Both the position numbers and the translations under genes were made by a program. Shown here in pieces: positions 13,521 to 44,200 of a stretch of 64,000 nucleotides of DNA. How positions within the stretch are numbered: position 1 is the first letter of the stretch; each line of letters opens with the position of its first letter. The DNA lies in assembly GCA_964016885.1 (NCBI GenBank), contig OZ024742.1, forward strand, positions 125,178,001 to 125,242,000. The letters are read 5' to 3'. The stretch is from Eledone cirrhosa (taxonomy: Eukaryota). The notes under the pieces are model-generated. The model did no database searches and was not told the origin of the DNA. It saw nothing but the letters and a program-made list of their open reading frames with translations.

Positions 13521-13553
<33 letters not shown>

Positions 13554-13740
13554 GATAATTTAATATATCAACTAACATAAGCGCACAGATGCACGCCCAT
13601 GCCAGCAAATACACAGGTTATGTCATAGTACCTAGGTGGTTCAATGCAGGAGAATGCAGAACAATAATATAAAGGACGTAAAATAAGAAAATATTTTTTT
13701 TTTTAAATTTTAAAAAAATTTTTTTCTTACTTAAATTTTC

Positions 13741-13822
13741 ACTCCAACTAATTAGTTTCTGCAATGGGATAAAGACAGTTACGTAATCCAACTGTCGAGA
13801 ATTCATTGCGTCATCAGGGAGT
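13741..13822 (-). ncRNA. Type I hammerhead ribozyme, family 1
   Basis: ACTCC-CTGATGA-C-GCAATG...CATTGC-A-GAAA-CTAATTAG-TT^GGAGT: stem I ACTCC/GGAGT, stem II GCAATG/CATTGC with inner GACAGTT/AACTGTC hairpin, palindromic stem III, GUU site. Confidence 0.9.
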
Positions 13823-14297
13823 CTATTCTCAGTTAAGTCTCCAGGCAATGCGCGGACACTGGCGGCTCATATAAAAATAATAATAATTCGGTAGATCGAA
13901 CAGCTTGCGAGGACTGGATTCTATGTACCGAAATTCTCACTGCTTCAAGTCAAATGGCCGATTCTAAAGAATCAATCACGTGACACAGAGGCTAGTTAGA
14001 AGGAATGGGATGGTAAGATGACTGACGCCTACTAACACCCCCAAAAAAATTTTTTTAGAAGTGGTTTTGACAAGTTTGCTCGACAAATCAGTGATTTGGA
14101 GATAAATATAGATAATTTAATATATCAACTAACATAAGCGCACAGATGCACGCCCATGCCAGCAAATACACAGGTTATGTCATAGTACCTAGGTGGTTCA
14201 ATAGTGGAGAATGCAGAACAATAATATAAAGGACGTAAAATAAGAAAATATTTTTTTAAAAAAATTTTAAAAAAATTTTTTTCTTACTTAAATTTTC

Positions 14298-14379
14298 ACT
14301 CCAACTAATTAGTTTCTGCAATGGGATAAAGACAGTTACGTAATCCAACTGTCGAGAATTCATTGCGTCATCAGGGAGT
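14298..14379 (-). ncRNA. Type I hammerhead ribozyme, family 1
   Basis: Same motif as 13741-13822, 557 nt away. Confidence 0.9.
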
Positions 14380-14527
14380 CTATTCTCAGTTAAGTCTCCA
14401 GGCAATGCGCGGACACTGGCGGCTCATATAAAATTATTGCAGAAACTAATTAGTTGGAGTGAAAATTTAAGTAAGAAAAAAATTTTTTTTAAATTTTTTT
14501 TAAAAAAATATTTTCTTATTTTACGTC

Positions 14528-14665
<138 letters not shown>

Positions 14666-14875: not shown

Positions 14876-14985
14876 TCCTGAGGTTTTATTTAACTACCTG
14901 TCTCTCAGTTTTTCAGCTATTCCCAAGGTACCTAATGTTATAGGTATTGTTTTTGTTTCCTACATCTACATCTGGATTATTTCTT

Positions 14986-15165
14986 TGGCAGTATCGGTAG
15001 AAGGTCGGACGCCATGCTTTCCAGCATAGTTACGTCCTTTTACGATCTGAGTTCAAATCCCGCCAAGGTTGACTTTGCCTTTCATCCTTACGGGGTCGAT
15101 AAAATAAAGTACCAGTAATGCACTGGGTAATTGCTGGCCTTGTGCCTAAAGTAGAAACAATTATT
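14986..15165 (+). mobile_element. tRNA-derived SINE (MetaSINE-like)
   Basis: A box TGGCAGTATCGG, B box GAGTTCAAATCC, core GCCTTTCATCCTTACGGGGTCGATAAAATAAAGTACCAG, tail GTAGAAACAATTATT. Confidence 0.88.
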
Positions 15166-16012: not shown

Positions 16013-16339
16013 CACATATATAACCGACCTGGACCCATTGGAATTGATGGTAAAATTCAAATGCAGGGTTTCTGTCACACCTAAATCAATAATACTGTCT
16101 GCTTAAAACTATAAGATTTTGGTATAATGATCGAACAAGTAATATCACGTTATCAATAGGTATTTTGTTCTGAGCCAACTTTGTGAAAGATGCAGAGCTT
16201 TGTAAAAGCACATGCGTAACTCACAAGGGGAAAATCCCCAGATTTTATCGAATAAATTCAGTATGTGTAAATGATGTAAAAAGTTGCATAAATAGCACAA
16301 CCAGGTAGTTTTAAAATATATATAAATATATAAATATTT

Positions 16340-16481
16340 ATAACGAAGGAAATGTGGTAAGGAACCATATGGACCATAACGCACCAGAATACTCAATACT
16401 TAGGGTAGTAGAGTGGGTAATAGGAAAAAGTATGACCCCGAAACGGCTTGACCTCTGCCGTCGGTGTCATACTTTTTCCTA
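16340..16481. mobile_element. Short head-to-head pLTR-like fragment with the 3' half of a hammerhead
   Basis: TAGGAAAAAGTATGAC/GTCATACTTTTTCCTA inverted pair around GAAACGGC..GCCGTC; TA-rich flanks; related to 27573-27690. Confidence 0.6.
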
Positions 16482-16494
16482 TATATATATATAA

Positions 16495-18117
<1,623 letters not shown>

Positions 18118-18737
18118 TTAGCAATAACCAAAGAGTGCTTAGAAATACATTGTTTTATTTGCTAAGTGTTTCATCCATAGCCTAGGGCAGGAATCATCGG
18201 AGCTTATAAACAAAAATATATCAAAGGTTGCAGGCTCCATCGAACTCAGTCACCAGAACAAGGATAAAGGATAAGTCGCTTGGTCCCAGGCCAGCGCTGT
18301 ATAGAACACACATAATACATGATACATATAATGTCATAGACAATTACATCACAAGGTTATCACATAAATGGTGCAATAGATCATAAGGAGGTTGAGAGGA
18401 CAGCAAGAAAGGAATGAGGCTGTTATTCAGCATGATCAAAAGACAAAACAAAGCATAGACACCTCAATTCAAAAGCAGTGCAAATACATGATTTACATGC
18501 AGAGTATGAAAGCTTGTCAGCAGGAGTCAGTAAAAATAATAGTTGGTTAGCTGTGGTGCAGCTTTGCAGGCAGGATTGTTTATAGGAAAGATGGTGCAGA
18601 CCAGTAGTATCACCTTGTAACAGGTCGATTTCTCCATATCACACCACCACCCTCTATCTGTGGGTTGCAGTTCCAAGCGTTAGGCGATATAATACTAGGT
18701 TTCCAACCTAGTATTATATCGCCTAACGCTTCCAACT

Positions 18738-19758
18738 GGGGAAAAGAGAATGAATATTATAGAGGAGAAATAGTCTAATGAGGTCTGTAACTTGAGGAGA
18801 GTCCATGGATCCCATCGTTATATCGAATAAGTTGTTATATGTGTTTCTTGTCCAGTGTTCTTCATGGAAGTTTAGTAAGGTTTTTCTAGCGTGAGTTATG
18901 ATGTTGATTTCCTCAGTAGATAAATCCTATCTATTTCTGGCGAAGATCAGTGCTTTGTTTAAGAGAATTGTAGATATCGAAGAATAGCAAGAATCGATGT
19001 CGAATTGTATGAATGAAGCTGAGTTTTTATTCACTATTCTTAGTGAACCACTCAATAACCTGGGAAGTGTTATCCCATAATGGAAGTGTTACACATTTTC
19101 CAATTTGCGGAATGATTCGATCAATAATTTTCTTGCTCATAGTACCGATATCAGATTTTGATGGGCATATCAGTCTAATAGATGGTTTCGAATTAAAGTC
19201 AGATTTATGGTTCTTCAGGTTGAAGTGCGGGTTTTTAGGTGTGAAAGTCTCTGTCCTATCTTCAATGTGGAGTTATTTTACTATAGCACATGATATGTTG
19301 TTCAAGGGTGTCAGTGCGGTGGTGCTGGTTTTCTTATAGTTTTTTCTAAGTTCTTTATAAACGAACTGGTTATACTTATCGATGTCCATATGGTATAGAT
19401 TACCAGTTTTGTCAGAATGGACATGGACCTTGTTTGAACTTTTCAGTTGCAGAAGGGTAGATAGAGTCTAATTCCTTTTGGAATTCAGATTTGTGTTTAC
19501 TGAACCTTACGTTTTTAATTATGTTCAGTAGGGCGCTCTCAAAATGTTCAAGTTGAATATTATGAGGAGGATTTTTGTATGTGTTGAATCCATAGCGGTA
19601 CTTCTTTTCATTTGTATTGGTTTGTTGTCAAAATGATAGTCTCTCCATCGCATTCTGCTAATAAACTGGTTAGGTTTTTGTATGAGCACGAGTAGATATT
19701 CGTCTTTAGGTGGAATCGGAATATTCTTCAACGAAGTACCCAAATATTGTTTTTCCAT
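18738..19758 (-). mobile_element. Naiad PLE, inverted 5' portion (ATG to RT motif B')
   Basis: MEKQYLGTSLKNIPIPPKDEYLLVLIQK..FISRMRW N-terminal motif; ends in an inverted copy of about 19770-19893. Confidence 0.85.
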
Positions 19759-19764
19759 TGTGAC

Positions 19765-21700
19765 GCAAGAACAACACTGGACAAGAAACACATATAACAA
19801 CTTATTCGATATAACGATGGGATCCATGGACTCTCCTCTAGTTACAGACCTCTTTGGACTATTTCTCATCTATAATATTCATTCCTCTTTTCCCTACCTC
19901 AAAAGTCGTCTTTATCGGGATGATTGTCTATTGATATCTAACAATCTTAGCAATTCTAATATAGAGAAAAAAAAACAAATGAGAAAATTCCTCAAGGACT
20001 ATTGCAACCTTAACATCACCTTTGAAAACACCTCAAAAGTAGCTAACTTCCTTGACGTTACCTTAGACCTCTCTACGAATATTTATCAACCTGACCAACC
20101 AGAATCTACACTATGTACGTTCACGCTCTAACCACCCTGGCTCTATACTAAAAAACTTAGTATATAACATATCTCTTAGACTTTCTAAATTATCTTCCAA
20201 TGAGGATATATTTTATAAAAATGCACCCTTCTACAACGAAGCCCTAACTAGAAGTGGATATAAAGAAAACATTTCATATATCCCAAACACTACTATGGAC
20301 CATACTACTAAACCTAGCAAAAACTACAAACACCAAAAAATACCATCGAAACAAATGCCTAATGGGGTCATTCCTATCACACCAAACAACCGAAAAACCA
20401 CAACAACTATTACTACCCGATCTATGACCAACGTTAACAACTCACATATGAATACCAAACATTCAACCTCTCATAATCTACCCAATAATAACACCAAATA
20501 CAACCACTGCAATTTACCAACTTCCACAAATACAAAAGCTAATCATAAGAACTCATCTAGAACACAGCACATTAATATAAGTGGGAATAAGAACTTAACT
20601 AAAAACCGCAAAAGAAACAGAACATGGTACAACGCACCCTTCAACCTGCAAACTATTGGACAAATCCCCAAAAAATTCTTCGAAATTCTACATAAACATT
20701 TTCCACCAAACCACAGATACCACCAAATATTTAACAGGTATACTGTTAAATTCTCATACTCTACATCAAACAATCTCCAGCAAAAAATAAGCAACTACAA
20801 CATTTATAAATTTAAAAATAATATGACCACACCACCACAACATAATTTAAATAAGACTTCACCTTTTAAAAGGACAAATAATACAATCCTTCAACCTTGA
20901 AAACACAACACTCAAATCACCAACACAAAAACAACATAACACGAAATCACAACATAACCCTAGCACTAAATTACCCACAAAGCAATATTCATTCTCTCGC
21001 TAACATTAATTACAATAACAATAGCTCAATGATTAATGAGAATTATGTAGGTACCCCCAACAACCATCTTACGTATGGTTGTAATTGCAGAAATAGAAGC
21101 GTTTGCCCCTTAAATGGCAACTGTTTGATTAATCATATAATATATAAATGCACTGTGTCTACAACTGACTCCAACAAATCATATATAGGATCTACATCGA
21201 ACACATTTAAGAAAAGATATTACGCACATTCCAGTAGCTTTAACAATACTAAACTAGCTAACACCACATCTTTAGCTGAAGCAGTAAATAACTATAAAAA
21301 GAAAAGATATAGTGGGATACCATACTGCAAAGGGAACAGGAGAGAATGCAGATTATTTTCGGGGAATATCTTGGAAATTACTAAATCTAAGGACGATTTA
21401 TTGAATAAAATACAGGAATTGATTATAGCTTGTAATCACCGTATACGAAAAACATTTAAGTACTATAAACCTAATTAAACATTCTAAATAGCAACTCACT
21501 ATAATTCTATGTAACGTATCATTTGTTAGTATCCCCTTCCCCACATTATACGCCTTCCTGTTTATTTATTTTTTTTTAACCTTTTAATTGTTTAGCTTCC
21601 ATAGATTCATGCGTTACTGACTAAGGGAATCAAGGTACATAACCAGCTGTAATTGCATGGGTATACATGTATCTATTTATGTATGATAAAAGAATATATA
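19765..21700 (+). mobile_element. Naiad PLE, 3' portion (RT, linker, GIY-YIG endonuclease, partial 3' UTR), frameshifted
   Basis: FDITMGSMDS..LYRDDC..NFLDVTLDL; RKRNRTWYNAPF; CNCRNRSVCPLNGNC..IIY..SYIGST..FKKRY..LLNKIQE..CNH (ORFs 19682-20131, 20295-20900, 20897-21478). Confidence 0.88.
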
Positions 21701-21930
21701 TATATATGTGTATAGTAAATATTCTCAAGTGTTTCTATGTATAAGTAATCAAACTTAGATAAATGCATTTTGACATACAGTCAAAACGCATAATTTTTTT
21801 AGGTGACAAAAGTACATATATTCACATATATAAATAGAGGTATAATTACATTGATACTCCATTAAAAACATACATACGCATACGAAAATATAAACATATA
21901 CATACACATACATACACGCACACAAACACA

Positions 21931-22026
<96 letters not shown>

Positions 22027-22221
22027 GAGAGATAATTTAATATATCAACTAACATAAGCGCACAGATACACGCCCATGCTAGCAAATACACAGGTTATGT
22101 CATAGTACCTAGGTGGTTCAATGCAGGAGAATGCAGAACAATAATATAAAAGACGTAAAATAAGAAAATATTTTTTAAAAGAAATTTTTTAAAAATTGTT
22201 TACTTACTTACTTAAATTTTC

Positions 22222-22298
22222 ACTCCAGCTAATTAGTTTCTGCAATGGGATAAAGACAGTTACGTAATCCAACTGTCGAGAATTCATTGCGTCATCAG
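22222..22298 (-). ncRNA. Inactivated family 1 hammerhead
   Basis: GUU site mutated to GCU and a 15-nt deletion removes the 5' strand of stem I. Confidence 0.75.
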
Positions 22299-22767
22299 TT
22301 AAGTCTCCAGGCAATGCGCGGACACTGGCGGCTCATATAAAAATAATAATAATTCGGTAGATCGAACAGCTGGTGAGGACTGGATTCTATGTACCGAAAT
22401 TCTCACTGCTTCAAGTCAAATGGCCGATTCTAAAGAATCAATCACGTGACACAGAGGCTAGTTAGAAGGAATGGGATGGTAAGATGACTGACGCCTACTA
22501 AAACCCCCCCAAAAAATTTTTTTAGAAGTGATTTGGCAAGTTTGCTCGACAAATCAGTGATTTGGAGATAAATATAGATAATTTAATATATCAACTAACA
22601 TAACCGCACAGATGCACGCCCATGCTAGCAAATACACAGGTTATGTCATAGTACCTAGGTGGTTCAATGCAGGAGAATGCAGAACAATAATATAAAAGAC
22701 GTAAAATAAGAAAATATTTTTTAAAAATAATTTTTTTTTAATTTTTTACTTACTTACTTAAATTTTC

Positions 22768-22849
22768 ACTCCAACTAATTAGTTTCTGCAATGGGATAAA
22801 GACAGTTACGTAATCCAACTGTCGAGAATTCATTGCGTCATCAGGGAGT
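22768..22849 (-). ncRNA. Type I hammerhead ribozyme, family 1
   Basis: Intact core and stems I-III. Confidence 0.9.
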
Positions 22850-23188
22850 CTATTCTCAGTTAAGTCTCCAGGCAATGCGCGGACACTGGCGGCTCATATA
22901 AAAATAATAATAATTCGGTAGATCGAACAGCTGGCGAGGACTGGATTCAATGTACCGAAATTCTCACTGCTTCAAGTCAAATGGCCGATTCTAAAGAATC
23001 AATCACGTGACACAGAGGCTAGTTAGAAGGAATGGGATGGGATGGTAAGATGACTGACGCCTACTAAGCAGTGAGAATTTCGGTACAATAAATCAAGTCC
23101 TCGCCAGCTGTTCGATCTACCGAATTATTATTATTTTTATATGAGCCGCCAGTGTCCGCGCATTGCCTGGAGAATTAACTGAGAATAG

Positions 23189-23270
23189 ACTCCCTGATGA
23201 CGCAATGAATTCTCGACAGTTGGATTACGTAACTGTCTTTATCCCATTGCAGAAACTAATTAGTTGGAGT
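23189..23270 (+). ncRNA. Type I hammerhead ribozyme, family 1
   Basis: CTGATGA at 23194-23200, GAAACTAATTAGTT^GGAGT; predicted cleavage after 23265. Confidence 0.9.
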
Positions 23271-23749
23271 GAAAATTTAAGTAAGTAAGTAAACAATTTT
23301 TAAAAAATTAAAAAAAAAAAATATTTTCTTATTTTACGTCTTTTATATTATTGTTCTGCATTCTCCTGCATTGAACCACCTAGGTACTATGACATAACCT
23401 GTGTATTTGCTAGCATGGGCGTGCATCTGTGCGCTTATGTTAGTTGATATATTAAATTATCTATATTTATCTCCAAATCACTGATTTGTCGAGCAAACTT
23501 GCCAAAACCACTTCTAAAAAAATTTTTTTTGGGGTGTTAGTAGGCGTTAGTCATCTTACCATCCCATTCCTTCTAACTAGCCTCTGTGTCGCGTGATTGA
23601 TTCTTTAGAATTGGCCATTTGACTTGAAGCAGTGAGAATTTCGGTATATAGAATCCAGTCCTCGCCAGCTGTTCGATCTACCGAATTATTATTATTTTTA
23701 TATGAGCCACCAGTGTCCGCGCATTGCCTGGAGACTTAACTGAGAATAG

Positions 23750-23831
23750 ACTCCCTGATGACGCAATGAATTCTCGACAGTTGGATTACGTAACTGTCTT
23801 TATCCCATTGCAGAAACTAATTAGTTGGAGT
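23750..23831 (+). ncRNA. Type I hammerhead ribozyme, family 1
   Basis: Intact motif 561 nt after the previous copy. Confidence 0.9.
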
Positions 23832-24310
23832 GAAAATTTAAGTAAGTAAGTAAAACATTTTTTAAAAATTTCTTTTAAAAAATATTTTCTTATTTTACGT
23901 CTTTTATATTATTGTTCTGCATTCTCCTGCATTGAACCACCTAGGTACTATGACATAACCTGTGTATTTGCTAGCATGGGCGTGCATCTGTGCGCTTATG
24001 TTAGTTGATATATTAAATTATCTATATTTATCTCCAAATCACTGATTTGTCGAGCAAACTTGCCAAAACCACTTCTAAAAAAATGTTTTTTGGGGTGTTA
24101 GTAGGCGTCAGTCATCTTACCATCCCATTCCTTCTAACTAGCCTCTGTGTCACGTGATTGATTCTTTAGAATCGGCCATTTGACTTGAAGCAGTGAGAAT
24201 TTCGGTATATAGAATCCAGTCCTCGCCAGCTGTTCGATCTACCGAATTATTATTATTTTTATATGAGCCGCCAGTGTCCGCGCATTGCCCGGAGACTTAA
24301 CTGAGAATAG

Positions 24311-24392
24311 ACTCTCTGATGACGCAATGAATTCTCGACAGTTGGATTACGTAACTGTCTTTATCCCATTGCAGAAACTAATTAGTTGGAGT
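24311..24392 (+). ncRNA. Type I hammerhead ribozyme, family 1
   Basis: Intact core; stem I ACTCT/GGAGT (one G-U). Confidence 0.88.
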
Positions 24393-24456
24393 GAAAATTT
24401 AAGTAAGTAAAAAATTTTTGTAAAGTTTTTTTTTTAAAATGCTTTCTTATTTTACG

Positions 24457-24515
<59 letters not shown>

Positions 24516-25436
24516 GAGAAGAAGTTTATGAAACGGAAATGCGGGTATAAAGAATTTATTAGGTAACAATTGTTTCTATAGTGTATGGGTTACCTATACC
24601 TCGCTATTAGAATAATATAAACATATTATCATAAACCGAAGATACACTGTAAGCAAACATACCATGTCGTCAGACCTTTGCATTGGAATGATATGAAAAT
24701 ATTTTATACACTAGATAAAAGAGAAAGAAGGAGATAGGAAGAGAAGGGGAAGAGGGAAGTGAGTAAGGGGGAGGGAGTCCTAGGATTTAAGACTGTCAGA
24801 CTAGTAGAGATTGTAAGGAGAGAATGTTTTGGCAGCAGTTAGCTTAATGAGGCGTGTTAGGGTTGGTGGGGGAAGTAAATTCTTCTAGTGGTGTTGTTTG
24901 AACAAAATTTAGTTAAAGGGGTCAAAGTGGTACAGAGTTACAGACAAGTTATTGGGGCTATTATAGTAGCAGGTTATTTCTAAAGGGGTTCAGAAAACAG
25001 TGTTTAGTACTATTATTATAGAAAGCCATATCCTGTGTATAAACATATAAAACAGAAATTTGCAAACGGTGGTGTAAAAAGGTAACATTATATGCATTTA
25101 AAAAAAGAAAAAGTCGTTTTCAAACGATGGCTACAGTACAGTGAACGTTCAATTTTGCTGTTCAAAAGTTTGTTTACCGACGTTAAAATGCAGTATATCT
25201 CCATATTGCATAATTTACAGAATCGATGATTTTGCTTATATGCAGGCGCAGGTGCAATAATTTGCCAATCAAGGGAGAATGCTTGATTGTTCCTCCGGAG
25301 CTGCCAGGCTTTATCGGCAAGGGTTGTTACGGAGCGCATTTTCTCGTGCCTGATCGAAGATCGATGTTGGTATAGGCGAGCTTTGAAAGAATTTACGGTA
25401 CATCCGACGTAATACCATTTGTTGGTTCCGGAATTG
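24516..25436 (-). mobile_element. Naiad PLE 3' fragment (GIY-YIG C-terminus plus 3' UTR/pLTR)
   Basis: ORF 25088-25339: TTLADKAWQLR..WQII..CKLCNMEI..LLNSKIE..CSH, preceded by YVG..FKARL. Confidence 0.82.
24561..24677 (-). ncRNA. Type I hammerhead with long stem II insertion in Naiad 3' UTR
   Basis: AGGT-CTGACGA-C-ATGGTATG...CATACACTAT-A-GAAA-CAATTG-TT^ACCT-AATAAA. Confidence 0.78.
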
Positions 25437-25476
<40 letters not shown>

Positions 25477-26459: not shown

Positions 26460-26520
26460 GTATATTTCTAATGACTTGAATTTGTATTTCATTGTTTTAA
26501 CTTATATATATATATATATA

Positions 26521-27520
26521 GCGAGTGATTATTAAGACAGCGGCCAGCTTACTACCATAGTAGCAGTCATGGGCAAATATTGCTCGACAAATGAATTGGA
26601 GATAATTATAAGGAAGTTATATCTAGTAACATTTATATACACACAGATGCATATCAATGCTAGCAAATATATAGGTTTTGTCTTATTAACAATGTGGTTC
26701 AATGCATGGGGTTGCAGAACAATAATATGAGAGACGTAAAATAAGAAAATTATAAAATTAACTTACTTACTACAATGGCTTGGAATCCAGTCCACGCTTT
26801 ACTCCATTCCAGAAACTAATTAGTTGGAAGTGATTTTTTAGTAAGTTAATTTTATAATTTTCTTATTTTACGTCTCTCATATTATTGTTCTGCAACCCCA
26901 TGCATTGAACCACATTGTTAATAAGACAAAACCTATATATTTGCTAGCATTGATATGCAACTGTGTGTATATAAATGTTACTAGATATAAATTCCTTATA
27001 ATTATCTCCAATTCATTTGTCGAGCAATATTTGGCCATGACTCCTACTATGGTAGTAAGCTGGCCGCTGTCTTAATAACCACTCGCTTTCCACTGATTGA
27101 CCTCGATGTCACGTGATTGATTCTTTTTGAATTTGCCACAGACGAGGAGGCAGTGATTTTCTCAATGGCTTGGAATCCAGTCCACGCTTTGCTATTTCCA
27201 TTCCACTGAATTATTTTTTTAATAAGTTTCCAGTGTCCTCGCTATGCCTGGAGACCTATACGGAAAAAGACTTTCCTGATGACGGAATGATTTTCTGTGT
27301 TTCTTCGGAAAATATATTTACTCCATTCCAGAAACTAATTAGTTGGAAGTGATTTTTTAGTAAGTAAGTTAATTTTATAATTTTCTTATTTTACGTCTCT
27401 CATATTATTGTTCTGCAACCCCATGCATTGAACCACATTGTTAATAAGACAACACCTATATATTTGCTAGCATTGATATGCATCTGTGTGTATATAAATG
27501 TTACTAGATATAAATTCCTT
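26521..27520. mobile_element. HHR tandem-repeat (retrozyme-like) family 2, head-to-head array
   Basis: Diverged homolog of family 1; minus arm 26521-26772, plus arm 26773-27520, 519-nt period; (TA)n on both sides. Confidence 0.85.
27270..27350 (+). ncRNA. Type I hammerhead ribozyme, family 2
   Basis: ACTTTC-CTGATGA-C-GGAATG-ATTTTCTG..CGGAAAAT..CATTCC-A-GAAA-CTAATTAG-TT^GGAAGT. Confidence 0.9.
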
Positions 27521-27532
27521 ATATATATATAT

Positions 27533-27572
<40 letters not shown>

Positions 27573-27573
<1 letters not shown>

Positions 27574-27690
27574 ACGAAGGAAATGTGGTAAGGAACTAGG
27601 TGGACCATAACGCACCAAAGTACTCAATACTGAGTCCAGAATTAGCCGTCGAAACGGCTTGAGCTCAGCCGTCAGGGTCCTACTCGTTCA
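27573..27690. mobile_element. Short inverted pLTR-like fragment with the 3' half of a hammerhead
   Basis: Homologous to 16340-16481; GAAACGGCT..AGCCGTC at 27651-27673; (TA)n flanks. Confidence 0.6.
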
Positions 27691-27846
27691 TATATATATA
27701 TATATATATATTCTGTAGATAAGGATGTAATTCACTTCAAGCATTCGACGTCATATTACTTCTTCCAAATAAGGAAGACGGACTATATTTAGAAAGAGCA
27801 AAATGCGAAATGTAGATGTTAAAATAAAGAGTCTTTTATTAATTGA

Positions 27847-29627: not shown

Positions 29628-29716
29628 AATTCATGAAGATATGTAGAGCGAGGAACAGATACTTCGTATATATCGTGGCATGGCTCCCCGCTCCACATTG
29701 AAACATATGTAGAATT
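29628..29716 (+). ncRNA. Type I hammerhead with one core mutation
   Basis: AATTC-ATGAAGA(C3 to A)-T-ATGTAGAGCG...CGCTCCACAT-T-GAAA-CATATG-TA^GAATT. Confidence 0.7.
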
Positions 29717-30023: not shown

Positions 30024-30092
<69 letters not shown>

Positions 30093-32934: not shown

Positions 32935-33120
32935 TGGATTGGCAGTATCGGTAGAGGGTCGGACGCCATGCTTTCCAGCATAGTTACGTCCCTTTATGAT
33001 CTGAGTTCAAATCCCGCCGAGGTTGACTTTGCCTTTCATCCTTACGGGGTCGATAAAATAAAGTACCAGTAATGCACTGGGTAATTGCTGGCCTTGTGCC
33101 TAAAGTAGAAACAATTATTG
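32935..33120 (+). mobile_element. tRNA-derived SINE (MetaSINE-like)
   Basis: Nearly identical to 14986-15165. Confidence 0.88.
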
Positions 33121-34026: not shown

Positions 34027-34063
<37 letters not shown>

Positions 34064-34323
34064 TTTCTTTATTAACCACAAGGGTTTACATAAAGTAGAC
34101 ATTAAGGACAGTGCAGGACAATGCAGGACGGTACAAATGGGCATTTCTGCGTGTAAAAAAACAAAAACAGAGGATGTAACAAAAATAACAATGAAAATAA
34201 CAATGAAAAATTCCCCAATAGGGGGGAGACTTCGGAGGGACATTTGTGGAGAAAGCCCAGTAAAAAGCCACAATGACCCTGACCACCAAGGCAAGTGCCC
34301 TCTCCCAGTTTTCCACCTTTAGT

Positions 34324-37300
34324 TTACAGATATATACTCAGAGTCGGCCCATTCACTCGGGCCATTCTTGCTTCTCTCACCCACCTTTCAACAAAATGCT
34401 GGGAAGAGAGCACTTCCCTCTCTACTCTGATTTTCCTTTTCAAATGAAATTTGAAAAAGTCAATCAGAGCATCACCGAAGAGGTAAGTGCTCGTCTTCAG
34501 CCCTTTCAAACGTGTCCACCATACTATCTCTTTCGCCATGGCCACCAGACAGATAAAAACTGCCTGCCCTTCCCGGCTAAAGGAGGAGGGCGGGGCAATC
34601 CTCACGATGGACTCAGATGATAGCTGGATCCGTCCTAAACGCGACAGCAGGTGTTCGACATAAACCCTCAAGTCAGCAATTTTCGGACACTGGACGAGTG
34701 CGTGCAGGACGGTTTCGTCGCCCTGCGCGCATCTCGGACATGCCCGGCTGACGGCACCTCCATGCCTGTAGAGTTTATCCCGAACTGGCAAGGCTCCTCG
34801 GTAGCACTGCCAGGCCAGAGATTTCTGGAAGTTGTCCATAGGCCCTGGCCCGAAAGTTCTTCCGAAGAGATTGGCTAGTTGATTTTCGTCGACGCCTAGA
34901 GTTTCCCCAAGTACGTCGTCGCTCTTCCCCTCCACTAATCCTCTATAGAACGCCGAGGTGGAGTTTCCACCGATCACATTGCTCGATTGGTCGAGGGCTG
35001 TGAGCGCCTGAAGACATTCCAGTCTCCAGGCGCTCCCTCTCGGTCTTCGCTTGACCCAGGACTGCAGCTCCGTCAAGGAAACGAGCTGGGGAAAAACGCG
35101 TCTAGCAAACGGCGACCACACCTGATCACCGTCGAGGAAGAGGTGGAGATGTCGTAGCCTGAGCGCGTGCCTGCGCATCATCAGCCACGGCATGCCCAGC
35201 CCTCCACGTAGCGGGTGTTGACAACAGATGGACCGCCTGACCATCGGAGCACGTCCCTTCCACAAAAAGCGAAAGAGCAAACGCTCCAGCGCAGTCAGGC
35301 GAGGCTTAGGACAAGGTACGACGGTTAGGCGGTAGCAGATGACAGACGCGATGTACGCGTTAGCCACCTCCGCTCGACCTTTCAGGGATAGCTTCCTCTC
35401 CGCCCATTTCTGGGTGAGAGAAGCCACCCTGCTCGTCACCTCGTCCCAGTTTTTGTCCGTCTGGAGGTCCGGACCGAACCAGACCCCTAGCAATTTAACC
35501 GGTCCGTCCGTCCAGCGCCCGACGACGCTGTTGGACGGCATGGACCTGCCTCTCCAGGTGCCGAGCTGCAGGCCCACTGACTTTTCCTGGTTGATCATTG
35601 CTCCTGTCACCGCTTCGTATTCTCTTAGTGTAGTGCCGATCGCCTCGATGTGTTTGGCGTTCGACACCACTACGGTGACATCGTCCGCATATGCTGACAC
35701 GGATCTTCCGCATCCTAGTTCGCGCGGGACTCCCCTCAACGTCTCCAGTTTGTGCAGTAATGGCTCGAGAGTCAATACGTACAAGAGGGACGAGAGGGGA
35801 CATCCTTGGCGGACCGAGCGCATGATGTTGAACGGTTCCGACAGGTGACCGTTCACTCTCACCACAGAGCAGATGTTGCTGTGCATGGCAGCGATCCAGC
35901 CTCTGAAGACGGGCCCAAAGCCAGCCGCCCTCAGGACTGCCGCTAGGTAACGATGGTCGACCCTATCGAAAGCTTTCGACTGATCTAAATTGATCAAGGA
36001 CCCACCCGTGCCAGGTTCCCTAGCTACCCTCTCTACGATGTATCGCATGAGGTGGAGGTTGTCGTGGATGGATCTGTCGGGAATGGCGCATGTCTGCGCC
36101 TCTCCCACCAGACCACCAACGACAAGCGCCAACCTCTTTGCTAGCACCTTGGCCAAAATCTTAAACTCTGTGTTTAGCAGAGTTATGGGCCGGAAATTGT
36201 CTATGTTATCCCCCTTGTTCGGATCCTTTCTCAGCAGTGCCACCGCTCCTCGGCTCACAGAACTGGGAATTCTCCCGTTCTGTTGCCAGTTGCAGTAGAC
36301 GTCCGCCAAGAGGCCTCCGAACAAGTCTGGCATCTGTACGTAAAGTTCATAGGGCAGACCATCCAAACCAGGCGATTTACCCCTTGTGCAGCCAGTCATT
36401 GCCTCCCGTACTTCAGCGGCTGTTATCGGCTTTTCGCAACACCTCGCCTCAGTGGCCGAGAGCCGCGGCAGTCCGTCGAGGTAGACACTAAAGTCCATCC
36501 CTCTACCCGGCTCCCCGCTGCCCCCGAACAGCTGAGCGAAGTGTCGCTGAAAAGCTTCACACATTTGCCCGGGATCGAGTAGCATGCGCCCGTCGTGGTC
36601 CACCAAAGACCGGATCGTGGCTTTGTTGCCACGACGCGCCTCCGCCACTCGGGCCCATTGAACGGCTTTCGTCCCCTCGTGTCTGAGAGCACGCACCCTA
36701 GCTCTGACAACGCAGCCTTCGTGCTTTGCATTGAAGAATTGGTCAAGGGCCAATTTCGCCGCAAGCACGTCGGTCGCAATGCCTTTGCTAAGCGCCTCGT
36801 CTAATTTTCTAACTAGTTCTCCCTCTGCTCTATTTTTCTCTATTGCTAAAGCCTTACTAAACCTAATCGATTCTATTCTAATCGCTCTTTTCAGAGCAAA
36901 CCACCACTTGTTGTTGACGATGGCCCCCGTCAACGCCCGCTTAACTAGTTCGCTAATCCGGTCTCTGTAGGCCTTGCGCGCTGGTAAGGACGCGTTTAGC
37001 TTCCAGTAGCCGGGTCCTCGTCTATGAAGCCTATCTAAGTCAAGCACACAGGTCACGAATTTGTGGTCCGTGTAGCTGACTATCTTGAATTGTGGACAGC
37101 CTATGCTAGACCTATCTATTTCCCTACAAAATACTCTATCTAGATATGATCTGGATGACCCTATGCGGTTTGTCCAAGTCCACATTGGCACATTCGGAAA
37201 ATCCAATCGGTACCTGTCAGACAGTTCAAAACGCCTGAGCAGGTTGGTGAGGCTCTTGCACCCTCCACCCCTATCCGCTAATCCCACACAGTCCCAGCGT

Positions 37301-37743
37301 GCATCTAAGATCCCGTTCCAGTCGCCCACTAACACTAAAGAGCGGGACGTTCCAAGAAAGGTCTCCAGACGCCGGAAGAAATCAGGCCGCCCTGCTCCTG
37401 TCGGGGCATAGACGGCCACTAGCCTGAAAGCTTGCCCGTCTCCGCTGGTCACGTCCAGCACCACCAGCTTACCCTCTGGGTCCAGGAAGATGGCCCGTAT
37501 GGCGAGATCCAAACCTCTCCGAAAAATCACAGCAACTCCTCCACCCGATCCAGGACGGCTGGGAGATGCGTACACATCGTAGCCGCCGAAGATCGGTGCG
37601 AAGGCCCGTGCTTCGGAGATTCTGGTCTCGCTGATGGCCACTACATCTATGTTTAGTGACCTGAGGTCGTTGAGCAGGTGACCCTGCTTCCATGACGACC
37701 CCAAGCCACGCGCATTTATGCTGCCTATTCTGAGTGAGGTCAT
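34324..37743 (-). CDS. L1/Tx1 ORF2: AP endonuclease, reverse transcriptase, C-terminal zinc finger (1139 aa)
   Basis: SINARGL, ISETR, VYAP, GDWN, YLDR, TDHK; KSPGLDGLP, FRPITLLN, QGCPLS, YADD; CPRC..ETVLHALVQC. Confidence 0.95.
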   Translation of the reverse strand: MTSLRIGSINARGLGSSWKQGHLLNDLRSLNIDVVAISETRISEARAFAPIFGGYDVYASPSRPGSGGGVAVIFRRGLDLAIRAIFLDPEGKLVVLDVTSGDGQAFRLVAVYAPTGAGRPDFFRRLETFLGTSRSLVLVGDWNGILDARWDCVGLADRGGGCKSLTNLLRRFELSDRYRLDFPNVPMWTWTNRIGSSRSYLDRVFCREIDRSSIGCPQFKIVSYTDHKFVTCVLDLDRLHRRGPGYWKLNASLPARKAYRDRISELVKRALTGAIVNNKWWFALKRAIRIESIRFSKALAIEKNRAEGELVRKLDEALSKGIATDVLAAKLALDQFFNAKHEGCVVRARVRALRHEGTKAVQWARVAEARRGNKATIRSLVDHDGRMLLDPGQMCEAFQRHFAQLFGGSGEPGRGMDFSVYLDGLPRLSATEARCCEKPITAAEVREAMTGCTRGKSPGLDGLPYELYVQMPDLFGGLLADVYCNWQQNGRIPSSVSRGAVALLRKDPNKGDNIDNFRPITLLNTEFKILAKVLAKRLALVVGGLVGEAQTCAIPDRSIHDNLHLMRYIVERVAREPGTGGSLINLDQSKAFDRVDHRYLAAVLRAAGFGPVFRGWIAAMHSNICSVVRVNGHLSEPFNIMRSVRQGCPLSSLLYVLTLEPLLHKLETLRGVPRELGCGRSVSAYADDVTVVVSNAKHIEAIGTTLREYEAVTGAMINQEKSVGLQLGTWRGRSMPSNSVVGRWTDGPVKLLGVWFGPDLQTDKNWDEVTSRVASLTQKWAERKLSLKGRAEVANAYIASVICYRLTVVPCPKPRLTALERLLFRFLWKGRAPMVRRSICCQHPLRGGLGMPWLMMRRHALRLRHLHLFLDGDQVWSPFARRVFPQLVSLTELQSWVKRRPRGSAWRLECLQALTALDQSSNVIGGNSTSAFYRGLVEGKSDDVLGETLGVDENQLANLFGRTFGPGPMDNFQKSLAWQCYRGALPVRDKLYRHGGAVSRACPRCAQGDETVLHALVQCPKIADLRVYVEHLLSRLGRIQLSSESIVRIAPPSSFSREGQAVFICLVAMAKEIVWWTRLKGLKTSTYLFGDALIDFFKFHLKRKIRVEREVLSSQHFVERWVREARMARVNGPTLSIYL

Positions 37744-37778
37744 GTTTAAAATAGAGTGGAAAAGATGGGAAAGACCAC

Positions 37779-39875
37779 TTACCGTACTTTTGGTAGAGGA
37801 GGGATGGTTTTTACATCCCTTTTCACTTGATCGTCTGGTGAAGGGACCGTTGAATCGTCCCTTCGGCTGGTCGTCGGCTCTTCTAAGAGAATGTCTGAAT
37901 ATACTCTTCGATTGATGGTTCCTCCTAGGTCCCTGAAATCACCAACTGCGTTGGGGAATTTCGTTTTAATGTTTGTGTATTGTTTCTGTGCTATTTTTAG
38001 CAGTCTTATGTTAGTTGGCGTTTTGATTGGTGCTGGTATTATGTAGTCCTGTTGTGAAATGTCTGTGTGTTCAATTATGTAAGTCATTAGTTTCTTGTTG
38101 TGTGTGTTTATTGCCGTGCATTTGTTTTTCTGGGGGTGGGGTGTGGTTCTGCTATTTTCTTGTCGTTGTTGCTGGGTGTGTGTGTTTTGTTGTTGTGTTT
38201 GCGATGTTGGTGCTTGTGGTGGTGGTGTTGAAGGTGTTGTTGGCGGTGGGGTTGTCGCCGGTGGTGATGGTGGTGCTGGTGTGGGTGGTGATGGTGTTGG
38301 TGGTGTTGCTGCTGTGGGTCTCTTTGCAGTAGACTTTACCCTTTTCTCATTTCTTTCCTCCCTTTTCAAAGGCGACGATGCGCTGCTTCTGCGTTTGTGC
38401 CTTCTTGCGACCTTTTGCCATCCCTCTCCCACCTCACACTCCATGTCTGATTCTGTAAGGTCGGGGAGGGGTACCAGCTCCACTCTTTCACTTGTTGTTG
38501 TTGGTGATGTTTGCACTGGAGTCTCTGTTGCAGCTGCATTTGGTATTGCTGTTGTTGTTGTTAATATTTCCACTGCTGCTGCTGTCTTTGATTTCCGTGG
38601 AGTGGGTATGGGTGCCACGGACCTATCGTTCCTGGTTGCCGCTTGTCCTGTTGCTGGTAGCCGTGGAGCCGGATTCGGAAGGAGGGGGGTTTTCTCCTTT
38701 CTCAGGGTCTTCTCGTTGCAGAAGGCCCTGAGGTGAGTCTTCGATCCACAGCGAAAGCATTTCGGGCGTTTGCCCTCAACACTTATGGGCAGTTGAGTGC
38801 CGTTATCGAAGTCTATCACATTCGGGATAGCTTCGATGCACTCCTGGTTGGTTTGGATTAGCATCTCAATGGAGGAGCCGACCCAATCTTCTCTTACTTT
38901 TTTCTGTACTTGCAGTACAGTTGTTTTGTCCTCGATTCCGACGAGGACAGACGCGGCCAGCCAAGAAGGGGTCATTCCGGGGGGGACGTGGGTCAGTTTG
39001 ACCCTCACAATTTTTTGCCCGCAGTAGGAGGGCACCAACACCATTTCCTCGCTCCTTAGGGTCACTACTGATTGGGCCTTTGCCTCCTGGGGTGTGGCAA
39101 AAAGTACGTCTACGGTGGCGTATTTTTTGCCTCGGGTGATGTGCGTTTTCCTCTGCCACACAGACCCCAAGGCTTTTTGTATTTGGGCCTCTGTGGCTCT
39201 TTCCACCCTACGTGATTTTGTACTTACTGTACGGTACGTGACCGTACAGTGCTCTTGGGTTTCGAAAAAATTTTTCGCTGCCTTGCAGATTGCTCGGTGT
39301 CCGTTCTTTGTCACCATCTTCTTCGCTTCCTCTAATTCCTCATTTGTTATGAGGATTGTTTCCAAGTTTTTCGCAATACCTGCAAATGACATTGGTTTTT
39401 CTCTGCTGTTGTTGTTGTCGTCAGAGCTGCTGGTACTTTTGTTGTTGCTGCAGGTACTACGACTACTGCCTCCGCCGCTGTTGCTGTGGTTGTTGTTGGT
39501 GTTGCTGCTGCTAATGCTGTTGTTGTTTATGCTGCTGGTGATGCTGTTGCGGCTGCTACTGTTGTTTTCATTGTCACTGTTGCTGTTGTTATTACGGCTG
39601 CTACTGCTATTATTCCTGACGTCAGACGAATGAACTGGGTTTTCGTATTTCCCGCACACCTGTTTCGTCGCTGTCGTCGTCGTCGTGGAGAAACCTTGCA
39701 CGCTTTGCACGAGACTTTTCTTTTCTTTCGTCGCTTGCGAAAGAGAAGGGAGGGAGAGAGACACATTTAAATAAGGGAGGGAGAGAGACAATCTTCTCTC
39801 TGCTGTAGTGATGATTGAGGAAGAAGAAGACGGAATGAGTGGGAGTGACGTATGAAATTTCTTTTTCGTAGCCAT
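37779..39875 (-). CDS. L1/Tx1 ORF1: nucleic-acid-binding protein with CCHC zinc knuckle (698 aa from first ATG)
   Basis: CFRCGSKTHLRAFC; Ser/Asn- and Pro/Thr-rich tracts; lies directly upstream of ORF2. Confidence 0.9.
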   Translation of the reverse strand: MATKKKFHTSLPLIPSSSSSIITTAERRLSLSLPYLNVSLSLPSLSQATKEKKSLVQSVQGFSTTTTTATKQVCGKYENPVHSSDVRNNSSSSRNNNSNSDNENNSSSRNSITSSINNNSISSSNTNNNHSNSGGGSSRSTCSNNKSTSSSDDNNNSREKPMSFAGIAKNLETILITNEELEEAKKMVTKNGHRAICKAAKNFFETQEHCTVTYRTVSTKSRRVERATEAQIQKALGSVWQRKTHITRGKKYATVDVLFATPQEAKAQSVVTLRSEEMVLVPSYCGQKIVRVKLTHVPPGMTPSWLAASVLVGIEDKTTVLQVQKKVREDWVGSSIEMLIQTNQECIEAIPNVIDFDNGTQLPISVEGKRPKCFRCGSKTHLRAFCNEKTLRKEKTPLLPNPAPRLPATGQAATRNDRSVAPIPTPRKSKTAAAVEILTTTTAIPNAAATETPVQTSPTTTSERVELVPLPDLTESDMECEVGEGWQKVARRHKRRSSASSPLKREERNEKRVKSTAKRPTAATPPTPSPPTPAPPSPPATTPPPTTPSTPPPQAPTSQTQQQNTHTQQQRQENSRTTPHPQKNKCTAINTHNKKLMTYIIEHTDISQQDYIIPAPIKTPTNIRLLKIAQKQYTNIKTKFPNAVGDFRDLGGTINRRVYSDILLEEPTTSRRDDSTVPSPDDQVKRDVKTIPPLPKVR

Positions 39876-40088
39876 GTTTTTTTGTTTAAAATGAAATTTT
39901 TGGTACAAAACCCCAATAACTGGTTATTTAACCCCGAAGGGCCAAATAACGGACAGAAAGACCCCTCTCACGAGGAGGAGGGTGTCTTTATCAACAATTT
40001 GGTTCAAGTTTTAAACAATTTACAATTGTTTTAACGGTTAAAAATTACTATACCTTACAGAGCCGAGCCTCCGTCAACCATGGCATTC

Positions 40089-40210: not shown

Positions 40211-40392
40211 AATAATTGTTTCTACTTTAGGCACAAGGCCAGCAATTACCCAGTACATTACTGGTACTTTATTTTATCGACCCCGTAAGGATGAAAGGCA
40301 AAGTTAACCTCGGCGGGATTTGAACTCAGACTGTAAAGGGACGTAACTATGCTAGAAAGCATGGCGTCCAACCCTCTACCGATACTGCCAAA
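40211..40392 (-). mobile_element. tRNA-derived SINE (MetaSINE-like)
   Basis: Reverse-complement of the SINE consensus. Confidence 0.88.
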
Positions 40393-41220
40393 ATGAATGA
40401 ATATTACAAATGTATGCACTGAATTTCGTAAACAAATAATTTCGTAAAAATAAATAATTTAAAATTGACTTCTTTTCAAAGTTGCACTTCCCGTATATCG
40501 TCGCCACCACCACCACTTCAACTACCATATATATAGAAAGAGGGAGTGTGTGATGAGAGAGATAGAGAGATTATGATTTTCTACAAGCTGGAGCATATGA
40601 GTGTGCATATACATACATCTATATGTATGAGTATATAACTATTATGAGTATATAACTATAATCGCGCAAACACAAATTTATAAAAATACACACTCACGGA
40701 CATAATTCACGCAAATACACATACATTCACACATACTTTCACACAAACATACATACATTCACACATATACATTTACACAAACACACGCATACAGTCAAGT
40801 TTTATTTATTTATTAACTCTTTATTTATTTATTATCACTTTTTTTTAAACTCATTTAATATAATGGTTACAGAACAAAAACACTAACAAATATAATATAT
40901 GCAAAGGAAAGGGAAGGAAAAAAAGAAAGAGAAAAAAGACGCAAGCAGGTAATACACACCTCTAAGACGATATGCTGGCGAAAGAGTAGAACGGGCCACT
41001 ACCAGAGCAAAATATGGCAATATAGACAGGGGCACTGAGAAACCTCACTAATAATTTTTGAGGCAAGCCAGCACGCTCGCAGCGTTACCTGGGGTGATGG
41101 CGAGGCTGAAGTGTTCCATTATGCACACTACATATGCTAGCAGAAAACCGCCCGAAGGGTGATTTTTCTGCTAGTAGTAGTAATAATAATAAAAGTAATA
41201 ATAATAATAATAATAATAAT

Positions 41221-44200
41221 GATTTCTTTATTAACCACAAGGGTTTACATAAAGAAGACATTAAGGACAGTGCAGGACAATGCAGGACGGTACAAATGGG
41301 CATTTCTGCGTGTAAAAAACAAAAACAGAGGATGTAACAAAAATAACAATGAAAATAACAATGAAATATTCCCCAATAGGGGCGAGACTTCGGAGGGACA
41401 TTTGTGGAGAAAGCCCAGTAAAAAGCCACAATGACCCTGACCACCAAGGCAAGTGCCCTCTCCCAGTTTTCCACCTTTAATTTACAGATATATACTCAGA
41501 GTAGGCCCATTCACTCGGGCCATTCTTGCTTCTCTCACCCATCTTTCAACAAAATGCTGGGAAGAGAGCACTTCCCTCTCTACTCTGATTTTCCTTTTCA
41601 AATGAAATTTGAAAAAGTCAATCAGAGCATCACCGAAGAGGTAAGTGCTCATCTTCAGCCCTTTCAAACGTGTCCACCATACTATCTCTTTCACCATGGC
41701 CACCAGGCAGATAAAAACTGCCTGCCCTTCCCGGCTACAAAGGAGGGCGGGGCAATCCTCACGATGGACTCAGATGATAGCCGGATCCGTCCTAAACGCG
41801 ACAGCAGGTGTTCGACATAAACCCACAAGTCAGCAATTTTCGGACACTGGACGAGTGCGTGCAGGACGGTTTCGTCGCCCTGCGCGCATCTCGGACATGC
41901 CCGGCTGACGGCACCTCCATGCCTGTAGAGTTTATCCCGAACTGGCAAGGCTCCTCGGTAGTACTGCCAGGCCAGAGATTTCTGGAAGTTGTCCATAGGC
42001 CCCGGCCCGAAAGTTCTTCCGAAGAGATTGGCTAGTTGATTTTCGTCGACGCCTAGAGTTTCCCCAAGTACGTCGTCGCTCTTCCCCTCCACTAATCCTC
42101 TATAGAACGCCGATGTGGAGTTTCCACCGATCACATTGCCCGATTGGTCGAGGGCTGTGAGCGCCTGAAGACATTCCAGTCTCCAGGCGCTCCCTCTCGG
42201 TCTTCGCTTGACCCAGGACTGCAGCTCCGTCAAGGAAACGAGCTGGGGAAACACGCATCTAGCAAACGGCGACCACACCTGATCACCGTCGAGGAAGAGG
42301 TGGAGATGTCGTAGCCTGAGCGCGTGCCTGCGCATCATCAGCCACGGCATGCCCAGCCCTCCACGTAGCGGGTGTTGACAACAGATGGACCGCCTGACCA
42401 TCGGAGCGCGTCCCTTCCACAAAAAGCGAAAGAGCAAACGCTCCAGCGCAGTCAGGCGAGGCTTAGGACAAGGTACGACGGTCAGGCGGTAGCAGATGAC
42501 GGACGCGATGTACGCGTTAGCCACCTCCGCTCGACCTTTCAGGGATAGCTTCCTCTCGGCCCATTTCTGGGTGAGAGAAGCCACCCTGCTCGTCACCTCG
42601 TCCCAGTTTTTGTCCGTCTGGAGGTCCGGACCGAACGAGACCCCTAGCAATTTAACCGGTCCGTCCGTCCAGCGTCCGACGACGCTGTTGGACGGCATGG
42701 ACCTGCCTCTCCAGGTGCCGAGCTGCAGGCCCACTGACTTTTCCTGGTTGATCATTGCTCCTGTCACCGCTTCGTATTCTCTTAGTGTAGTGCCGATCGC
42801 CTCGATGTGTTTGGCGTTCGACACCACTACGGTGACATCGTCCGCATATGCTGACACGGATCTTCCGCATCCTAGTTCGCGCGGGACTCCCCTCAACGTC
42901 TCCAGTTTGTGCAGTAATGGCTCGAGAGTCTATACGTACAAGAGGGACGAGAGGGGACATCCTTGGCGGACCGAGCGCATGATGTTGAACGGTTCCGACA
43001 GGTGACCGTTCACTCTCACCACAGAGCAGATGTCGCTGTGCATGGCAGCGATCCAGCCTCTGAAGACGGGCCCAAAGCCAGCCGCCCTCAGGACTGCCGC
43101 TAGGTAACGATGGTCGACCCTATCGAAAGCTTTCGACTGATCTAAATTGATCAAGGACCCAGCCGTGCCAGGTTCCCTAGCTACCCTCTCTACGATGTAT
43201 CGCATGAGGTGGAGGTTGTCGTCGATGGATCTGTCGGGAATGGCGCATGTCTGCGCCTCTCCCACCAGACCACCAACGAAGAGCGCCAACCTCTTTTCTA
43301 GCACCTTGGCCAAAATCTTAAACTCTGTGTTTAGCAGAGTTATGGGCCGGAAATTGTCTATGTTATCCCCCTTGTTCGGATCCTTTCTCAGCAGTGCCAC
43401 CGCTCCTCGGCTCACAGAACTGGGAATTCTCCCGTTCTGTTGCCAGTTGCAGTAGACGACCGCCAAGAGGCCTCCGAACAAGTCTGGCATCTGTACGTAA
43501 AGTTCATAGGGCAGACCATCCAAACCAGGCGATTTACCCCTTGTGCAGCCAGTCATTGCCTCCCTTACTTCAGCGGCTGTTATCGGCTTTTCGCAACACT
43601 TCGCCTCAGTGGCCGAGAGCCGCGGCAGTCCGTCGAGGTAGACACTAAAGTCCATCCCTCTACCCGGCCCCCCGCTGCCCCCGAACAGCTGAGCGAAGTG
43701 TCGCTGAAAAGCTTCACACATTTGCCCGGGATCGAGTAGCATGCGCTCGTCGTGGTCCACCAAAGACCGGATCGTGGCTTTGTTGCCACGACGCGCCTCC
43801 GCCACTCGGGCCCATTGAACGGCTTTCGTCCCCTCGTGTCTGAAAGCACGCACCCTAGCTCTGACAACGCAGCCTTCGTGCTTTGCATTGAAGAATTGGT
43901 CAAGGGCCAATTTCGCCGCAAGCACGTCAGTCGCAATGCCTCGTCTAATTTTCTAACTAGTTCTCCCTCTGCTCTATTTTTCTCTATTGCTAAAGCCTTA
44001 CTAAACCTGATCGATTCTATTCTAATCGCTCTTTTCAGAGCAAACCACCACTTGTTGTTGACGATGGCCCCCGTCAACGCCCGCTTAACTAGTTCGCTAA
44101 TCCGGTCTCTGTAGGCCTTGCGCGCTGGTAAGGACGCGTTTAGCTTCCAGTAGCCGGGTCCTCGTCTATGAAGCCTATCTAAGTCAAGCACACAGGTCAC

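Follow-up and report, generated by a model that had tools for sequence, protein, structure and literature searches.

Penelope-like elements (PLEs) of the Hydra clade, as characterized by Craig et al. 2021 (PMC8557442), encode, at the C terminus, a GIY-YIG endonuclease without CCHH, with CxxC and CxH motifs around a conserved E and N, and further show a CxCX5C linker, DKT and RWK, type I hammerheads near the 3' end (reported in that 2021 paper), (TA)n targets and 5' truncation. The Naiads of the same paper carry an N-terminal endonuclease with CCHH, DKA, CxC and IFD and are described there as having no canonical hammerhead; with the locus presented here they share a GIY-YIG domain, a (TA)n bias and inverted arms truncated at the 5' end, and inverted 5'-truncated arms at microsatellite targets appear there as a PLE pattern. 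The dimeric PLE hammerheads described by Cervera and de la Pena 2014 (PMC4209133) combine a short stem I, a longer stem II with an unpaired foot base and a small palindromic stem III, the palindrome being given as a known feature of metazoan type I hammerheads. Animal non-LTR retrozymes (PMC7229834; bioRxiv 10.64898/2026.07.22.740005) are described as non-coding tandem units of low GC with a type I hammerhead each, proposed or shown to be non-autonomous PLE derivatives. PLEs were proposed as their helpers in 2020 (Cervera and de la Pena, PMC7229834), and a July 2026 preprint by Li, Clavereau and Pollet (bioRxiv 10.64898/2026.07.22.740005) reports that retrozymes and PLEs co-occur in 32 of 35 species, that 24 of 57 Xenopus retrozyme families have Repbase TE homology, located at PLE termini, and that 8 of 9 tested Xenopus retrozyme dimers failed to cleave. 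The retrozyme-PLE partnership is already published, on co-occurrence and Xenopus pLTR homology, with direct mobilisation shown nowhere in the literature that we found. The published retrozyme sequence links returned by our search are to Xenopus PLEs, with none to the Hydra clade, and the same search gave no Hydra-retrozyme link, cephalopod retrozyme study or long-domain variant, any of which supplements or subscription papers may hold.

The window, that is, the whole 64,000-nt stretch of Eledone cirrhosa DNA analysed here, contains on its minus strand the end of a PLE that we call element B. Protein motifs and relatives identify 25088..25432 as the C-terminal 114 aa of a Hydra-clade GIY-YIG endonuclease with its stop codon; a 3' UTR of 410 nt (24678..25087), a hammerhead (24561..24677) and a tail of about 45 nt follow, the tail running into a (CA)n(TA)n tract common, tail to tail, to a neighboring tandem array (24462..24560 for tail and tract). 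The copy is 5'-truncated against (TA)n at about 25437-25453. Its protein ends in CKLC..E..LLN..E..CSH, and an HMMER scan gave 1986 relatives of the 114-aa piece at E<=0.001, whereas word-based protein searches returned no match; Pfam gave no family for four Hydra pieces. Among the best 150 of the 1986 relatives, CxLCxxE is found in 142 and N..E..CxH in 126, and 121 end within 30 aa of the B C-terminus; residues C72, N91, E95, C100 and H102 are invariant across 28 alignment rows. YxIxCxxC occurs in none of these 150 and is also absent from a second Hydra element (A) and from a third piece at 11-858. The CxCX5C linker, DKT and RWK fall outside the truncated B copy; we observe the linker in A and the 11-858 piece and DKT in A, while a full-length relative of B (P0136) has RWR, DKT, a CNCx5C linker and a C-terminal endonuclease. 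Because the endonuclease is C-terminal and its CxxC/CxH motifs match the Hydra definition, B is on its motifs assigned to the Hydra clade and not to the Naiads, and the 3'-end hammerhead and (TA)n insertion are likewise those of Hydra elements. As for the marks of a Naiad, B has neither an N-terminal endonuclease nor the lack of a canonical hammerhead; with respect to CCHH, the copy is cut just before that region, and it includes no reverse transcriptase, the part in which DKA, CxC and IFD would lie. A quick tree over 126 columns, restricted to B's own relatives without Naiad or Neptune rows, places A and B in an open group with a support of only 82 and carries no weight in this assignment.

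Alignment of four sequencing runs to 24520-25432 for the B copy count yielded 331 contig pieces in X1 (122 at 99% identity or more, 119 at 95-99%, 77 at 90-95% and 13 lower), 22 in X4, 2 in X5 and 1265 reads in X15, and one X5 contig extends past the truncation point of the window copy; X1 may be the sample of origin. A joint query with units and B against sequencing runs listed no RNA run, and its shares do not bear on co-occurrence of the two. The window copy is a 5'-truncated member of a multicopy and fairly young Hydra family. By eye, 14 of the 78 loose ends of B contig pieces were compared and contained no unit sequence of the arrays described below. A SINE-like repeat of about 180 nt occurs in about ten copies (14985-15165, 32939-33119, 40211-40392, 59036-59214 and others); its end contains AGAAACAATT and may inflate the B read depth near 24551-24581.

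The sequence-only reading had placed a hammerhead at 24561..24677, about 400 nt downstream of a GIY-YIG C-terminus, and both statements are borne out, the distance behind the stop codon being 410 nt. The type I hammerhead was examined by pattern scan, folding, shuffle controls and the alleles of other copies. Its stem I has 4 bp (AGGT/ACCT, 24677-24674 with 24564-24561, minus strand), followed by the core CUGACGA (24673-24667; CUGAyGA across copies), a 90-nt domain II that starts with C and ends with A (24666-24577), GAAA, and a palindromic stem III, ACAATTGT, with a GUU site and a predicted cut between 24565 and 24564. Type I core (CUGAnGA / GAAA / UH) and three stems are thus all present. 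A strict hammerhead pattern matches eight times in the window, while 60 locally shuffled windows average 0.08 matches, the other seven real matches all lying inside tandem repeats, and the pattern arises in 0 of 1000 shuffles of the B UTR; the hammerhead is real, and chance origin is ruled out by these shuffles. The 40 Rfam matches at E<=1 include no hammerhead family, likely because of the long domain II. The B hammerhead pattern also has 22 matches in prokaryotes, which were taken as chance.

Folding predictions differ between the window copy and its family. In the window copy the minimum-energy fold is not the hammerhead (z of 0.09 versus shuffles), which lies 5.6 kcal/mol above the free minimum. 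Domain II has four majority alleles (24660, 24642, 24622 and 24609) that would create a basal stem II of 9 bp above the C·A and take the z score of the domain from -1.7 to -4.1, with the monomeric hammerhead fold still costing 3.8 kcal/mol relative to the free minimum. Among 40 of the 89 difference rows between copies, the core is touched only at the variable N7. According to these models, the B ribozyme is better formed in the family majority than in the window copy. The Hydra hammerheads covered from PMC8557442 and from public loci have short domains II (11-39 nt in the latter) whose base is U·U, G-C, A-U or G·U; B has one of 90 nt on a C·A base, and its ribozyme follows a UTR of 410 nt, where the public loci have 67-335 nt between match end and core. 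It resembles the dimeric PLE hammerheads of PMC4209133 in its short stem I, longer stem II and palindromic stem III, and differs from those described there in that the stem II foot is unpaired on both sides (C·A) and stem II runs into a long rod.

The window also holds three insertions of non-coding tandem arrays, with unit periods of 561 and 519 nt in two families that are about 70% alike. Insertion I (561-nt family, 13545..14535) consists of a minus arm at 14436-13545 and a plus arm at 14436-14535, with hammerheads from the pattern scan at 14379 and 13822 (minus strand). Insertion II (561-nt family, 22022..24466) has a minus arm at 23067-22022 and a plus arm at 23066-24466, joined head to head and bounded on either side by (TA)n; its hammerheads lie at 23189, 23750 and 24311 on the plus strand, three in succession as in a non-coding tandem retrozyme, and at 22849 on the minus strand. 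Insertion III (519-nt family, 26520..27528) again has head-to-head arms and (TA)n at both ends, with the single complete ribozyme of its family at 27270-27350 (plus strand). A tblastn comparison of 160 Hydra proteins with the arrays gave no match, and the unit hammerhead pattern has 0 matches in viral contigs. Like animal retrozymes, the units are non-coding, arranged in tandem and low in GC. They are longer than the 170-400 nt given for invertebrate retrozymes in 2020 (PMC7229834) and within the overall range of 51-972 nt given in 2026 (bioRxiv 10.64898/2026.07.22.740005), and they differ from animal retrozymes in their long domain II and predicted pseudoknot. The predicted unit circles are 62-64% paired and fold below their shuffles, and the hammerhead fold costs 2.5 and 3.2 kcal/mol in the two units. 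One 561-nt unit (22290-22310, minus strand) has a short deletion in stem I or its 5' flank and fails the hammerhead scan, and the minus arm of insertion III is without a complete ribozyme. A piece of 250 nt, present in inverted orientation at 21712-21965 and 25678-25437 (89% alike), flanks the block formed by array II and B, each copy ending in a microsatellite.

In all three insertions the arms join head to head, and each outer end carries (TA)n. The termini recur in both 561-nt insertions, at +205 from the cut site for the minus arm and at +83 for the plus arm, with differing lengths and junctions, and one arm of the 519-nt insertion ends at the equivalent of +205. The arrays are non-LTR retrozymes, most likely inserted, judging by these ends, by a (TA)n-targeting Penelope-type reverse transcriptase/endonuclease; a Penelope helper is likely because all three insertions show Penelope-type anatomy. 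The anatomy singles out no clade, since a decayed GIY-YIG piece of the CCHH type (YVIKCKGC..YIGQT, about 17200-17850, minus strand) also lies beside a long (TA)n. This piece may be of the Neptune/Nematis type; CUGAnGA is absent from the 760 nt downstream of it. Within one (TA)n(TG)n tract the tails of B and array II abut, the two lying on opposite strands, and their adjacency is best explained by a common microsatellite target rather than by a pLTR relation.

The sequence-only reading had further linked B to the units through four traits of their hammerheads: C and A flanking stem II, an enlarged domain II, a palindromic stem III and a GUU site. All four are confirmed, the units showing C/A flanks, domains II of 51 and 48 nt, ACTAATTAGT as stem III and GUU; the last two, however, turn out to be generic. 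Our survey took in 85 loci of Hydra type, 79 of them from among the best 80 of 284 metagenome matches and 6 from genome contigs, and we scored the 72 with at least 150 nt behind the match, dropping 13. A sense-strand hammerhead is found in 49 of the 72 and an antisense one in 0, so that UTR hammerheads are the rule among Hydra loci; the 49 form 40 clusters at 80%. Among them, a palindromic stem III occurs in nine, including ACTAATTAGT (L043, L045) and ACAATTGT (L069, L098), and a GUU site in 13; C·A at the stem II base occurs in none, and domain II measures 11-36 nt in all 49. Six further candidates among the 23 misses all have U·U and a domain II of 10-39 nt, and no C·A was seen by eye in 26 published Hydra rows. 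Palindrome and GUU are generic within Hydra hammerheads; the unusual traits are C·A and a large domain II. A search for Hydra loci in viral contigs found none. A further, decayed type I hammerhead (C3 changed) at 29628..29716 on the plus strand combines a 60-nt domain II with a U·U stem II base, ACATATGT as stem III and a GUA site; because of this combination, C·A is the one shared trait that may still mark descent. The C·A base together with a palindromic stem III is also found in an unrelated Chara PLE. The 29628-29716 hammerhead is possibly the 3' end of a further family; it stands solo, with (TA)n at 30027 and no Hydra protein match upstream, and may form a flank helix of 7 bp (76 of 1000 shuffles).

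The 5' flank of stem I is predicted, in the same register for both unit families, to pair with the 5' side of domain II and form a pseudoknot helix between 23180-23186 and 23209-23215 in the 561-nt unit and between 27258-27267 and 27291-27300 in the 519-nt family (both plus strand). Of its seven common pairs, three are changed on both sides, two on one side and none is broken. The common 7-bp register, in a helix first spotted by eye, is reached in 6 of 20000 joint column shuffles of the two families, while each family alone gives 37-48 of 1000 shuffles as good; in the 519-nt family the helix competes with an inner hairpin. The B hammerhead shows no such flank helix (739-829 of 1000 shuffles as good). 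As modelled, the unit helix is of the kind described by Perreault et al. 2011 (PMC3088659), whose pseudoknots likewise join the stem I and stem II regions. Such pseudoknots were predicted in about 40% of the hammerheads treated there, where U·U at the stem II base is tolerated, whereas here the helix is predicted for the array units only, in two families.

With respect to sequence, comparison of the 3' UTR of the window copy of B with the units revealed no similarity above chance. Dinucleotide shuffles score as well as the B UTR in 56 of 300 cases against the 561-nt array and 36 of 300 against the 519-nt array, and composition-matched segments do so in 21 and 42 of 192; unit profiles show no match to B beyond 22 nt at E of 63, and the best blastn match between the units and the 85 Hydra loci has an E value of 0.10. 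The decayed element A (18739..21693) has its reverse transcriptase, CNCx5C linker and endonuclease on the plus strand (about 19778-21478) and an inverted 5' part with DKT on the minus strand (19743-18741), and its 3' UTR ends in (TA)n at 21694. The last 150 nt of this UTR are collinear with unit positions +56 to +205 and have the same (TA)n terminus. With a score of 58, which no composition-matched segment (0 of 258) and a single shuffle (1 of 300) reach, A ranks first of 59 stretches upstream of (TA)n; several comparisons were made, of which this alignment is one. The score is matched by 45-49 of 1000 local shuffles, the reverse strand scores nearly as high (3 of 300), the profile E-values are 2.6 and 3.7, and A against the 519-nt family is non-significant (57 of 258; 157-388 of 1000). 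The alignment gives a weak hint that points to A rather than B. We found no hammerhead in the window copy of A; a degenerate candidate in its UTR was dropped, having no GAAA in register and no stem II. A perfect AT-rich inverted repeat lies at 18677-18731, at the outer end of the inverted arm. The third Hydra-clade piece (11-858, minus strand), a reverse transcriptase end with a GCSCx5CP linker, runs off the window and by eye resembles the published Hydra-1_Obim. The B tail has weak local scores of 23 and 19, with no control run, to short pieces at 16314 and 27545. These pieces (16314-16493 and 27545-27704) are related to each other (76%), lie between (TA)n runs and contain a GAAAC-hairpin-GTC arrangement that is half-hammerhead-like, without CUGAnGA.

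The explanation that we consider probable is that the B hammerhead is the 3'-UTR ribozyme of a truncated Hydra copy, and that the arrays are retrozymes that spread via (TA)n-targeting Penelope enzymes. By analogy with other PLE hammerheads, the B ribozyme would, probably dimerised by way of its palindromic stem III, cut a tandem B transcript at GUU and so free unit-length B RNA for reverse transcription primed at a nicked (TA)n. Known PLE and retrozyme biology suggests that unit RNA would be released and circularised in a comparable manner; the two arms could then arise from two priming events per insertion, each at nicked (TA)n against a UAUA site inside the RNA. Whether the helper of the arrays came from the Hydra clade is, in our estimate, an evenly balanced question, and family B itself is an unlikely candidate for that role.

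The sequence-only reading had gone further, deriving the arrays from Naiad pLTRs, or making them parasites of these, with mobilisation by the Naiad reverse transcriptase and endonuclease. Its idea that the arrays depend on Penelope machinery finds support in the insertion anatomy; its Naiad label is wrong, and descent from B is not shown by a UTR at chance level and a hammerhead without the flank helix. That the element is a Naiad is wrong in our assessment and retains next to no probability: the (TA)n target and the GIY-YIG domain are common to Naiads, yet here the endonuclease runs straight into stop codon, UTR and hammerhead, its motifs are those of Hydra, and YxIxCxxC is missing from all of the best 150 of 1986 relatives. 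A reading with a rather small chance makes family B or its ancestor both parent and helper, the units being an old derivative of the B 3' end that kept the ribozyme geometry and is recognised by the B protein through structure. The C·A base and long domain II, met in none of the 49 other Hydra hammerheads (none above 36 nt) nor in the six candidates among the misses (U·U, 10-39 nt), could mark such common ancestry; B is moreover multicopy, with young copies and the same target as the arrays, and the missing similarity is not fatal, as TE homology is reported for just 24 of 57 Xenopus retrozyme families (bioRxiv 10.64898/2026.07.22.740005). Against this parentage stand the chance-level UTR comparison, the lack in B of the unit flank helix, the 60-nt domain II with U·U at 29628, and the C·A with palindromic stem III of the Chara PLE.

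Family A as the source, with the terminal 150 nt of the unit 3' end taken from the A 3' end, strikes us as improbable. It would account for the collinear alignment to +56 to +205 with its identical terminus, unmatched among 258 segments and first of 59 stretches, but the local shuffles, the non-significant 519-nt family, the profile E-values and the reverse-strand score speak against it, as does the absence of a hammerhead from the window copy of A. The helper may also have been another (TA)n-targeting PLE, of Neptune/Nematis type or a true Naiad, the likeness to B then reflecting convergence or a lineage-wide hammerhead style; we think this unlikely, too. The CCHH-type endonuclease piece that adjoins (TA)n at about 17200-17850 (minus strand) is in its favor. 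According to PMC8557442, Naiads and Neptune elements also have a microsatellite bias and inverted arms, and eight Naiads have 'half cores' 35-50 nt apart, which is near the unit domain II length. However, the form of unit stem III (AC..GU, 2-3 bp) matches Hydra hammerheads, ACTAATTAGT itself being present in L043 and L045; a search of the PMC8557442 supplement, where line breaks can hide matches, gave 0 occurrences of the GAAA-stem III motifs of the units and B, and two cephalopod Naiad 3' ends from it are by eye unlike the units. In these two Naiads (Naiad_Obim and Naiad_Ovul) the supplement shows a permuted core order, in which a GACACC/GGTGTC hairpin is followed by GAAAC and, about 20 nt further on, by CTGATGA.

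Under our preferred explanation, with retrozymes moved by (TA)n-targeting Penelope enzymes, the insertion ends at this locus (arms placed head to head, (TA)n on either side, fixed termini) add evidence from an animal whose units measure 561/519 nt, and Hydra-clade families are named as testable helpers. Nothing is overturned, as the part of the sequence-only reading that would have been surprising, the Naiad identity, is the part that was wrong. The long-domain-II hammerheads with C·A are a structural variant missed by standard screens, and PLE hammerhead counts may therefore be too low. A bolder idea, which we regard as doubtful, is that a C·A base and a domain II of 48-90 nt define a hammerhead clade common by descent to a Hydra PLE and two retrozyme families mobilised by structure recognition, the long domain forming in the retrozymes a covarying pseudoknot with the stem I flank; such hammerheads would escape Rfam and short-loop descriptors, so that some PLEs scored as hammerhead-less, such as the Naiads with half-cores at 35-50 nt, may carry them. 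Elsewhere in the window, a LINE of 5.9 kb (endonuclease, reverse transcriptase and zf-RVT by Pfam) is present as a tandem duplicate at 34028-39894 and 41187-47040 with 98.5% identity, and further related LINEs extend up to 64000.
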